Shown here one piece after another: positions 41,564 to 43,371 of a DNA stretch of 64,000 nucleotides. Under the pieces are notes generated by a model, which made no database searches, had not been told where the DNA came from, and was given only the letters and a program-made list of their open reading frames with translations. The first letter of the stretch is position 1; the number at the start of each line of letters is the position of its first letter. The DNA comes from Escherichia phage FriedrichZschokke: the sequence record MZ501067. The stretch is one strand, 5' to 3'. A program made the position numbers and the translations under genes.

Positions 41564-41582
<19 letters not shown>

Positions 41583-42052
41583 TCAGTGATAAAGTTATTT
41601 AAATTTTGAGTATATTTCTTTTCATCAAAAATCCTTTGTTGTCTGCGTAGCCGCCATGGCATTTCAATGAACGTGTACCATATCCCAGATAATATTGCTG
41701 CTGTAAAAATATTAACAAGTATGGTTAAAAGAATCCAATCTCCTATTCTGTCCATTGGATTTTTTATAAAAAAGTAAAATACGAATGATGTCACAGGAAA
41801 ACTAATAATGTACCACAGAATCATAATTTTATCTGTGAACCAATCAGCATTTGTTAACTTAGCACGACCATTATGAATACACACGAATTTATCATCTGTT
41901 ATAATAGATGGCTTAGCTGCTTGATATCCCATTCTAAACTCCCTAATCAACAAATTTTTCATATCTTCGGAACAACCATTCCAGTCAACTCTATTAACTG
42001 AAATGCCATCATCCCCATCATCTAAATCATACCAGCGAGTTTTTAAAATCAT
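41564..42052 (-). CDS. Membrane protein (162 aa) with C-terminal FITECRKLK motif
   Basis: Two hydrophobic helices; C-terminus [11 protein letters not shown]. Confidence 0.55.
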
Positions 42053-42423
42053 TTAATTTTCCTACAATCATTCACGAATTCTTTCATTGATTCATTTTCA
42101 ATATAAGACATGTAGTTATTATATTCTTTTAATTGTATTTTGTAATCCTTTTTTCTTTGCCAATTTATTTTAAAATTATCATAATGAAAATATAAAATGA
42201 TACTAAAGAATGAAAATAATGAAATTGCTATAGTATAATGAAGTTCACTCCAAACTTCTATTATATCTACTATACCGCTGACGTTACTGCGGATGTTTAA
42301 AATAATACAGTCAATCATTAATCCAATAAGACTACCAGCAAGAGCTGCAGCCAACGCCACAGCAAAAATTAAAAATGACTCAGAAAAAGAATATTTGACT
42401 TTATTTAGTTTTGGCTTTTGCAT
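42049..42423 (-). CDS. Membrane protein (124 aa) with C-terminal FVNDCRKIK motif
   Basis: Two hydrophobic helices; C-terminus KEFVNDCRKIK. Confidence 0.55.
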   Translation of the reverse strand: MQKPKLNKVKYSFSESFLIFAVALAAALAGSLIGLMIDCIILNIRSNVSGIVDIIEVWSELHYTIAISLFSFFSIILYFHYDNFKINWQRKKDYKIQLKEYNNYMSYIENESMKEFVNDCRKIK

Positions 42424-42797
42424 CGTGATTCCTTAACAAATTTCATAATTTCATTAAATTCATACATATTTAGTTTAAGCTGGTGTTCCTTTTTAATCTT
42501 TTTACACTGAGCTTTCCATTCACGTACACGTTTACGATAATGCCTTCCTTGATACCAATATCCTACCCAATTTACAGGTACCAATAAAAATGGAACTACT
42601 AATGGAAGAATTAATACTAACAAAAATATTACGCCAGATTTAATATCAGTCATAAAGTCTATAACCATTCCAACAATCAATAGAATTACAAATGATATAG
42701 CTGTCACAGGACCTATTAATACATCAGTAGGAATTAGCTGACGTTTTAGTTCATACTTCACAGGTTCACTTGGAAGGTATAGTGATGGCTTTGACAT
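42405..42797 (-). CDS. Membrane protein (~130 aa) with C-terminal FVKESRCK motif
   Basis: Two hydrophobic helices; start trimmed to an internal Met; still overlaps its upstream neighbour. Confidence 0.5.
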   Translation of the reverse strand: MSKPSLYLPSEPVKYELKRQLIPTDVLIGPVTAISFVILLIVGMVIDFMTDIKSGVIFLLVLILPLVVPFLLVPVNWVGYWYQGRHYRKRVREWKAQCKKIKKEHQLKLNMYEFNEIMKFVKESRCKSQN

Positions 42798-43371
42798 ATT
42801 CTCTACATTCCTTAACAAATTTTTCTAATAATAAATCGCTTTCAAAATTAGGATTTTCTACGAATTTATCAAAAAGATCATCAACAATAGTTAAGATATT
42901 CTTTTTACTAAGAATACGTTTATTTTCATGCTTTGTTTCAGAATCAACTATAAGAGTAAAGAAATATTTCTTGCCCTGAAATTTTACAGTAGTATCAATA
43001 TAGAATAAATTTGACTTTTGTAAATTACGTTTAAACCATGCATCACTTAAACTATAAACACCAAGATAATCATAATCGTCGTTTAAATAACATACTGTCC
43101 ATTCAGGAGAAATGAAATCAGTAAATTCAACATCAAAATCACATGTTAATGAATGAATTGATTCAATACTGTTAATAAGTATTCCAGGACGTATTAAAGA
43201 CTTTTTACCTTTATAAAATCCAGAAAGACTTTCATCAGTTTCATATGAAGAACCCCAATAATAATTACGTCCTTCTGCCATACGTTTAAGAGCATTTAAT
43301 AATTGGTCTGGAACATCAACCTGTCTTTGGAACTCTTCAAACATTGAATTGAAATCACTTTGCATTTTCAT
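42766..43371 (-). CDS. Hypothetical protein (201 aa) with near-C-terminal FVKECRE motif
   Basis: Soluble; ...LLEKFVKECREYVKAITIPSK. Confidence 0.55.
   Translation of the reverse strand: MKMQSDFNSMFEEFQRQVDVPDQLLNALKRMAEGRNYYWGSSYETDESLSGFYKGKKSLIRPGILINSIESIHSLTCDFDVEFTDFISPEWTVCYLNDDYDYLGVYSLSDAWFKRNLQKSNLFYIDTTVKFQGKKYFFTLIVDSETKHENKRILSKKNILTIVDDLFDKFVENPNFESDLLLEKFVKECREYVKAITIPSK

Follow-up and report, generated by a model that had tools for sequence, protein, structure and literature searches.

Positions 41564 to 43371 of a 64,000-nucleotide (nt) stretch from Escherichia phage FriedrichZschokke (sequence record MZ501067; the whole stretch is called the window below) hold four adjacent open reading frames (ORFs) on the minus strand. 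Synteny with the annotated RB14, RB69 and T4 records identified them as orthologues of T4 e.5, e.4, e.3 and e.2. One of the products is soluble and three are predicted membrane proteins, and all four carry at or near the C-terminus a short common peptide that looks like an undescribed docking or recognition tag. The genes and the motif found in each are as follows.

42766-43371 (-): e.5, 201 residues, soluble; a hyper-divergent family in which the C-terminal tag is the sole invariant feature
42802-42819 (-): e.5 tag, F-V-K-E-C-R, with 11 further residues after the motif
42405-42797 (-): e.4, 130 residues from the ATG; membrane protein with two hydrophobic helices and a Cys-less variant of the tag
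42423-42440 (-): e.4 tag, F-V-K-E-S-R, with Ser at the Cys position
42049-42423 (-): e.3, 124 residues; membrane protein with two hydrophobic helices, probable paralogue of e.4
42061-42078 (-): e.3 tag, F-V-N-D-C-R
41564-42052 (-): e.2, 162 residues; soluble N-terminal domain of about 75 residues, then two hydrophobic helices and the tag; phrog_2203
41576-41593 (-): e.2 tag, F-I-T-E-C-R

A TTG at 42818 was rejected as the start of e.4, the ATG at 42797 fitting both the annotations and the conserved N-terminus MSKP.

Six-frame translation of the window gave three matches to the strict pattern F[IV]x[ED]CR[KE], all of them near the stop codons of these genes, against a mean of 0.01 expected by chance (200 shuffles). 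An earlier note on this DNA, made from the letters alone, had described four neighbours with a common C-terminal tail; this is confirmed, and the C-termini read as given there. The looser pattern [FYW][IV]xxC[RK] was found in the last 17 residues of 4 of the 176 window ORFs and at none of 20,120 positions in ORF bodies. The fourth ORF matching it, of 193 residues (33959-34540, minus strand), ends ...Y-V-S-L-C-R-K-H-W... and was set aside as unrelated: it is thymidine kinase by length and position, and the match is presumably part of the zinc-binding C-terminus of that enzyme. The consensus first proposed, F-(I/V)-x-(E/D)-C-R-K, needs three corrections. In e.4 the Cys is replaced by Ser, and the Cys found close by is forced by the overlapping start codon of e.3 (cgATGc). 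Neither the E/D (position 4) nor the K (position 7) belongs to the conserved peptide, both being Shine-Dalgarno codons. In e.5 the motif stops 11 residues short of the end. The description of three two-helix membrane proteins and one soluble protein was borne out by hydropathy: e.2, e.3 and e.4 each contain two hydrophobic segments (Kyte-Doolittle 19-residue means of 1.8-3.1) separated by a short, acidic or neutral loop, and e.5 contains none (maximum 0.87). The C-terminal regions of the three membrane proteins are strongly basic (9-15 K+R versus 4-7 D+E). From the positive-inside rule, both of their ends, including the tail, are predicted to be cytoplasmic, in agreement with the earlier proposal.

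These ORFs are expressed in T4, where early transcripts have been recorded for all five genes from e.2 to e.6 and a time-resolved proteome places all five products in protein-expression classes (PMC9697503 supplement), indicating that they are translated, a point on which the earlier note would have stood or fallen. Precomputed Pfam families exist for e.4, e.5 and e.2 (PF26873, PF26876 and PF26896, respectively), and e.2, e.3 and e.4 fall into phrog_2203, phrog_2330 and phrog_2604, families labelled either membrane protein or of unknown function. Scans of e.2-e.6 against Pfam, NCBIfam and PADLOC gave no significant match. A profile search with e.4 over 1.84 billion representatives recovered only 7 proteins, which makes this a narrow family with no distant homologue that would reveal a function, and an iterated profile search with e.5 recovered few distant members. 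Two labels that circulate in databases, "sulfurtransferase" for e.3 and e.4 in several GenBank records and "host specificity protein" for e.6 in many deposited genomes, were discarded as unsupported by Pfam or NCBIfam. The genes are otherwise annotated as hypothetical. Searching the literature by gene name, we found no functional study of e.2-e.6 and no account of the shared tail, so that the peptide common to e.2-e.5 appears to be previously undescribed.

Orthologous loci were then compared across T4-like phages. The sample covered Tequatrovirus (T4, RB14 and metagenomic loci), Mosigvirus (RB69, WFK, BEU50), Gaprivervirus (TH40, MN01), an unassigned Yersinia phage, Dhakavirus (IME281), Jiaodavirus (Klebsiella phages), Kanagawavirus (ZX14), Winklervirus (Kc304), Karamvirus (CkP1), Biquartavirus (Aeromonas phage Riv-10), Bragavirus (SdyM_006), Pseudotevenvirus (RB43, EBPL) and Ceceduovirus (AS-zj). 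The tag was present in every sampled group, amounting to at least 13 genera of the Straboviridae, on neighbours that are otherwise unrelated, and its core can be written [LIV]-[END]-x-[FY]-[IV]-x-x-C-[RK]. Absence of the motif from orthologues would have refuted the earlier note, which thus withstands the check that it had set itself. Around it the proteins diverge strongly. Between genera, the protein at the e.5 position is 14-18% identical, Mosigvirus excepted (46%), with weak BLAST links chaining the genera together, and in an alignment of the e.5 family from ten genera the only invariant columns are M1, C189 and R190. The Arg of the tag is replaced by Lys in RB43 and EBPL and by Ile in AS-zj; this last phage, which infects Aeromonas, carries two tandem e.5-like paralogues ending in F-[IV]-x-Y-C-I (locus L026, 3651-4932). 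In a second class of tags, of the e.4 type, F-[IV]-K-[EN]-x-R is kept and the Cys position is occupied by S, I, V or M. All three Bragavirus tags have Tyr in place of Phe and are dissimilar in nucleotide sequence. This co-variation, seen in one lineage only, favours co-evolution with a shared surface.

The conserved entity is the peptide. The 91 distinct 18-nt versions of the tag encode 55 peptides. Synonymous codons at F, I/V and C are used about as in the background of the same genomes (TTT, 64% versus 60%; TGT, 57% versus 61%), and the Arg is encoded by all six of its codons (AGA, AGG, CGT, CGC, CGA and CGG). This indicates that the core of the tag is selected as amino acids. A shared interaction or recognition signal, much as the earlier note had suggested, is the reading that fits best.

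The nucleotide sequence under the tails nevertheless has a second role. Neighbouring genes overlap by 32 nt (e.5/e.4), by 19 nt (e.4/e.3) or through ATGA stop/start junctions (e.3/e.2 and e.2/nudE). All four motifs of the window lie between -26 and -1 of the downstream ATG, and each includes AAGGAA or AGGAAA, a purine-rich Shine-Dalgarno sequence located 5-11 nt before the next start and inside the upstream ORF:

42808-42813 (-): AAGGAA, K-E codons of e.5; likely Shine-Dalgarno for e.4, ATG at 42795-42797
42429-42434 (-): AAGGAA, K-E codons of e.4; Shine-Dalgarno for e.3, ATG at 42421-42423 across the R and C codons
42058-42063 (-): AGGAAA, R-K codons of e.3; Shine-Dalgarno for e.2, ATGA overlap at 42049-42052
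41573-41578 (-): AGGAAA, R-K codons of e.2; Shine-Dalgarno for nudE, ATGA overlap at 41564-41567
41127-41567 (-): nudE, Nudix hydrolase without tag, translationally coupled to e.2; identified by Pfam NUDIX (E 1e-13) and annotation

Since the tails lie inside the translation-initiation region of the next gene, a pure nucleotide explanation had to be tested, according to which the tail is a by-product that arises when the translation signals of the downstream gene (its Shine-Dalgarno, spacer and start codon, together with coupling) are read in the frame of the upstream one. Part of the tag does behave in this way. Of the 17 tags starting 17-23 nt ahead of the next ATG, 13 have K-E at tag positions 3-4; of the 13 starting at least 26 nt ahead of it, none does. 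At 17-23 nt the K-E codons (AAGGAR) form the Shine-Dalgarno sequence, and at 26 nt the R-K codons (AGGAAA) do so. AGR codons are also enriched at the tag Arg (48% versus 20% in the background). However, such a signal reaches no further than positions 3-4 and 6-7; at F, I/V and C, codon use stays at background, the Arg is reached through six codons, and other overlapping junctions in the window lack the motif. In addition, seven tags are kept 32-106 nt upstream of the next start, beyond any Shine-Dalgarno; in Aeromonas phage Riv-10 the next gene starts 68 nt after the stop codon of the tagged gene, and a tagged Jiaodavirus protein of 102 residues is separated from the next gene by a 29-nt gap. 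A nucleotide signal alone therefore fails as the source of the tail; as a sole explanation it is very improbable and largely refuted. The Shine-Dalgarno sequence is an overlay on a selected peptide and accounts for two or three codons of the tag only. The locus is thus a clean example of dual coding, in which two free positions of a selected peptide double as the ribosome-binding site of the next gene.

A related possibility keeps the peptide and places its action on the ribosome: the nascent tail would cause pausing near the stop codon and so tune re-initiation on the overlapping downstream gene. The strict C-terminal position, the peptide-level conservation and the 0-5 codons that separate the motif from a stop overlapping the next start in membrane members would all agree with it. 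In e.5-type proteins, however, the motif lies anywhere from 2 to 25 codons before the stop, some of these genes have no overlapping gene downstream, and arrest peptides are not generally known for an amphipathic helical pattern. We regard a role in pausing as scarcely probable.

The distribution of the tag was examined in 45 IMG/VR loci fetched with an alignment of e.6, the gene that precedes e.5, using the pattern [FYW][IV]xxC[RKI] in the last 32 residues. The ORF starting no more than 150 nt after e.6 was tagged in 37 of 39 loci. Among same-strand ORFs within 4 kb, the tag was present on 97 of 400 downstream of e.6 versus 5 of 346 upstream (odds ratio 21.8). It was confined to C-termini: 102 ORFs had it in their last 32 residues, and none of 65,187 positions in ORF bodies matched. 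The tagged proteins, soluble and membrane, fell into 32 BLAST clusters, and a Pfam search with the 32 representatives revealed no shared or meaningful domain. On one IMG/VR contig (L069, about 4959-7484) e.6 is followed by at least six ORFs with the tag, five of them consecutive, which encode both membrane and soluble proteins. A separate array of small soluble proteins (65-105 residues) comes after the tagged genes in Mosig-, Gapriver-, Dhaka-, Kanagawa-, Winkler- and Karamvirus. Its members have another motif in common, likewise found strictly at the C-terminus, G-x-W-[VI]-S-S-S-x-x-C-stop or W-x-P-S-S-C-stop (L003, 3231-4026; L004, 3191-4213; L016-L020; L023; many of L033-L067); the window lacks this array.

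Taken together, 103 distinct contexts of the tag were available, 64 in soluble proteins, with 2-25 residues after the motif, and 39 in membrane proteins, mostly with 0-5; the residues that follow (0-25 in all) are hydrophilic. A hydrophobic residue is found at -3 in 94 of the 103, and Arg or Lys follows the Cys in 100. The conserved hydrophobic stripe at -3, 0, +1 and +4 is the i, i+3, i+4, i+7 pattern of an amphipathic helix, and the helical hydrophobic moment at the motif is about 2. An AlphaFold2 model of e.5, built from a nine-sequence alignment, makes residues 181-195 helical at low confidence; with a predicted local distance difference test score (pLDDT) of 49.6, the model was too poor for a fold search.

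The same contexts could also be read as marking the carriers for covalent chemistry or turnover, with the Cys-Arg dyad as substrate or recognition site and a common fate for all of them. Candidate routes would be ADP-ribosylation (Alt/ModA/ModB), a redox or disulfide switch, a persulfide, or ClpXP degradation through basic C-termini of the MuA type. T4 encodes Arg-specific ADP-ribosyltransferases. The Cys is invariant in the main class, by definition of that class, it is followed by a basic residue almost throughout, the tag occurs at C-termini only, and in membrane members the chain ends on basic residues, 0-5 positions beyond the motif (CRKLK, CRKIK, VRRK, CRK). Yet e.4-type tags, having S, I, V or M in place of the Cys, keep the rest of the helix, the conserved stripe argues for a packed helix, and the variable residues after the motif in soluble members are unlike a terminal degron. 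Chemistry or turnover as the purpose of the tag is rather unlikely, with some real weight left to it.

A further possibility is that the similarity is a relic of the way the array was built, by duplication and by gain and loss of genes through recombination at the repeated junctions, each made up of an upstream tail and the ribosome-binding site of the gene after it, the tails having been copied between neighbours and homogenised with no shared function. Several observations point to such events. The e.3 and e.4 profiles matched with an hhalign probability of 90.7%, or 70.5% after removal of the tails; e.3 also matched the e.4 PHROG family (E 0.006), and the two have a common N-terminus, M-x-K-P-x-L. 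From these comparisons e.3 and e.4 are probable paralogues. The C-terminal half of e.2 matched e.3 with a probability of 82.9% over 17 tail columns only, falling to 2.8% without the tails, and matched e.4 at 3.7%; e.5 is set apart from e.2-e.4 by a different PHROG family and the lack of hydrophobic helices. At the nucleotide level, e.5 and e.4 share 13 identical nucleotides, TTTGTTAAGGAAT, e.3 and e.2 share TGYAGGAAAWTAAAATGA, and the tags of e.5 and e.3 in RB69 are identical at 19 of 21 nt. In Dhakavirus IME281 (L018, 4143-5025), e.4 has been lost by recombination between the e.5-tail/e.4-start and e.4-tail/e.3-start junctions, which left a chimeric tail. The protein database contains a natural e.3/e.4 chimera (P0103), and a natural fusion of the N-terminal part of e.4 to the C-terminal part of e.2 (P0098) is joined at P-V-T..S-F-V in the first helix. 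Mosigvirus WFK (L012, 2036-2522) lacks e.5 and e.6 and keeps a tagged e.3 together with a 5'-truncated e.4. In the T4 reference, e.2 (L011, 2860-3345) is truncated by a frameshift to 102 residues, without the second helix and the tag, which survive only in another reading frame (tail F-I-T-E-C-R-K-L-K); the window gene is intact at 162 residues.

The repeated gene junctions are thus recombination points for the gain and loss of cassettes. Copying of this kind explains how the tails spread, not why the peptide stays constant. No other part of these proteins, which are otherwise 14-18% identical, is as well conserved as the tag; its synonymous sites vary while its amino acids are fixed, it is kept where no gene overlaps, and it is found on 32 BLAST clusters. 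We consider a functionless relic improbable; copying by recombination probably operates alongside docking rather than replacing it.

The conserved gene that anchors this array is e.6, found in more than 1,100 phage records. The gene and the features around its 3' end in the window are:

43413-44006 (-): e.6, 197 residues, all-helical, conserved; heads the array, upstream of e.5
43416-43436 (-): tag-like C-terminus of e.6
43392-43407 (-): hairpin GGGGC-UUCG-GCCCC within the 41-nt e.6/e.5 spacer; UUCG loop on the coding strand, no U-run after it

The e.6 protein belongs to phrog_1203 (E 1e-87), a family that has been proposed, from an HHpred comparison in a Kuttervirus, to be homologous to PspA (PMC9409062). 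In a single-sequence AlphaFold2 model, e.6 forms a long helical hairpin, and pLDDT exceeds 90 across approximately residues 40-120. With this model as query in a Foldseek search of the PDB, the ten best matches were all Vipp1 or PspA (E 2e-4 to 2e-2, template modelling score about 0.5), and profile matches to Vipp1 were colinear and non-significant (E 0.4-1.7). Judged from the predicted fold, e.6 is a probable PspA/ESCRT-III-like protein. At its C-terminus e.6 has V-Q-E-Y-I-N-S-L-K, which fits the tag except that Leu replaces the Cys. This ending is conserved across genera, the orthologues in L003, L014, L016 and L019-L023 showing [ED]-Y-[IL]-x-[SA]-L-K. Because the relaxed pattern matches about 3% of the other window ORFs, this Cys-less tag is taken as a lead only. 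No e.6-like gene was seen in the 55-155 kb portion of the genome of Kuttervirus vB_SentM_sal1, which served as an out-group for the link between e.6 and the tag. The role of e.6 as conserved anchor of the array, like the paralogy of e.3 and e.4 and the overlap of the tails with the initiation region of the next gene, is absent from the earlier note.

The spacer hairpin may be an mRNA-stability or processing element separating e.6 from the coupled genes downstream. GC-rich hairpin-forming sequences also follow the e.6 stop codon in Jiaodavirus (L014, L015) and Gaprivervirus (L016), not in RB69 (L003). At the other end of the array, the gene order after e.2 is nudE, lysozyme gene e and denV. In the window denV directly adjoins gene e (40119-41089); on that side T4 has ipIII and ipII, and RB14 has Ip4.

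Our preferred interpretation is that the tag is a portable C-terminal amphipathic helix that docks its carriers on a common partner at the cytoplasmic face of the inner membrane, with e.6 as the leading candidate. We give it a probability of about 45%. According to this proposal, e.5, e.4, e.3 and e.2 would all dock on one partner, for which e.6 is the most economical candidate. By analogy with PspB/C-PspA and LiaI-LiaH, the role of membrane anchors or nucleators would fall to the two-helix proteins, e.5 would be a soluble adaptor or competitor, and the module as a whole may act on membrane integrity.

Several points weigh against docking on e.6. The IMG/VR loci are related to one another, so that the P-values of the linkage overstate independence and are indicative only, the effect itself being very large. 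Pfam PspA_IM30 does not match e.6, and the structure used in the fold search was a helical hairpin modelled from a single sequence. Given the poor model of e.5 (pLDDT 50), the helix could be an internal structural element of that protein. Tagged membrane proteins can persist without e.6, as shown by the tagged e.3 of WFK, and the tail of e.2 is dispensable in the T4 laboratory reference, where the gene is frameshifted and tagless. Finally, an invariant Cys next to Arg hints at chemistry (redox, modification or a metal site) beyond simple helix packing, and e.6 has no Cys.

Strictly C-terminal, kept throughout the T4-like family and tied to a PspA-like gene, the tag makes one testable module of five "hypothetical" genes, at a time when about half of T4 genes, e.2-e.6 included, are still without function. 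A bolder version holds that T4-like phages encode a Psp-like membrane-maintenance system of their own, in which e.6 would be recruited, nucleated or regulated by a variable set of tagged clients, two-helix membrane anchors as well as soluble adaptors, shuffled by recombination. The L-E-x-F-I-x-x-C-R helix would then mimic the C-terminal helix of e.6 (Y-I-N-S-L-K), making the tag a new viral recruitment code. We put this forward as speculation with the odds well against it. Recruitment of a phage ESCRT-III-like protein to the inner membrane by the tag, if it occurs, would bear on the means by which virulent phages maintain an energised membrane in the infected host, and also on their resistance to abortive-infection systems that depolarise the membrane.

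Compared with known systems, the locus shares some defining features of each and lacks others, and it is a member of no named family. The earlier suggestion of a superinfection-exclusion or signalling module gained no support, as no match to an exclusion or defence family was obtained in Pfam, PHROGs, NCBIfam or PADLOC; in particular, e.2, e.3 and e.4 do not belong to the families of the T4 superinfection-exclusion proteins Imm and Sp according to PHROGs, Pfam and PADLOC. A resemblance of E-F-I-x-E to the capsid-targeting or gp21 cleavage motif of T4 (I/L-x-E, N-terminal, with an obligatory Glu) was likewise rejected: Glu is present in only 32 of the 103 contexts, the tag is C-terminal only, and the carriers include early membrane proteins. 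Overlapping T4 genes are known to be translationally coupled, with the Shine-Dalgarno sequence inside the upstream ORF. The ATGA junctions, the 19- and 32-nt overlaps and the AAGGAA or AGGAAA placed 5-10 nt before each start conform to this arrangement, whereas ordinary coupling imposes no conserved peptide and explains two or three codons of the tag only.

Bacterial sorting tags (LPXTG/sortase, PEP-CTERM/exosortase, GlyGly-CTERM/rhombosortase) consist of a signature, a transmembrane helix and a basic cluster, and lead to export and attachment at the cell surface. Like them, the phage tag is a short C-terminal signature found on many unrelated proteins per genome and linked to one conserved gene. 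Unlike them, it is a predicted cytoplasmic amphipathic helix followed by 0-25 hydrophilic residues, and the annotations of the loci show neither a peptidase nor a sortase-like gene that could act as processing enzyme. The MIT-interacting motif (MIM) helices at the C-terminus of ESCRT-III proteins, which bind MIT domains, provide a second parallel: they too are short amphipathic helices at the extreme C-terminus with a hydrophobic and then a basic residue at the end, and e.6 itself ends ...V-Q-E-Y-I-N-S-L-K. The consensus is a different one, however, no MIT domain or Vps4-like ATPase was found in the locus, and the phage motif is carried mostly by proteins that are not ESCRT-III-like.

Another likeness concerns the Psp and Lia systems, in which bacterial PspA/IM30 effectors have small membrane partners, PspB and PspC for PspA and LiaI for LiaH. 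In Pfam and NCBIfam, e.2, e.3 and e.4 do not match PspB, PspC or LiaI/LiaF; the phage array also includes soluble tagged proteins, and the tag has no counterpart in the bacterial systems. The phage locus nevertheless places a probable PspA-like helical-hairpin protein, e.6, beside small membrane proteins, whose predicted cytoplasmic C-termini would offer an obvious contact surface, and LiaI resembles e.3 and e.4 in its small size and its two transmembrane helices.

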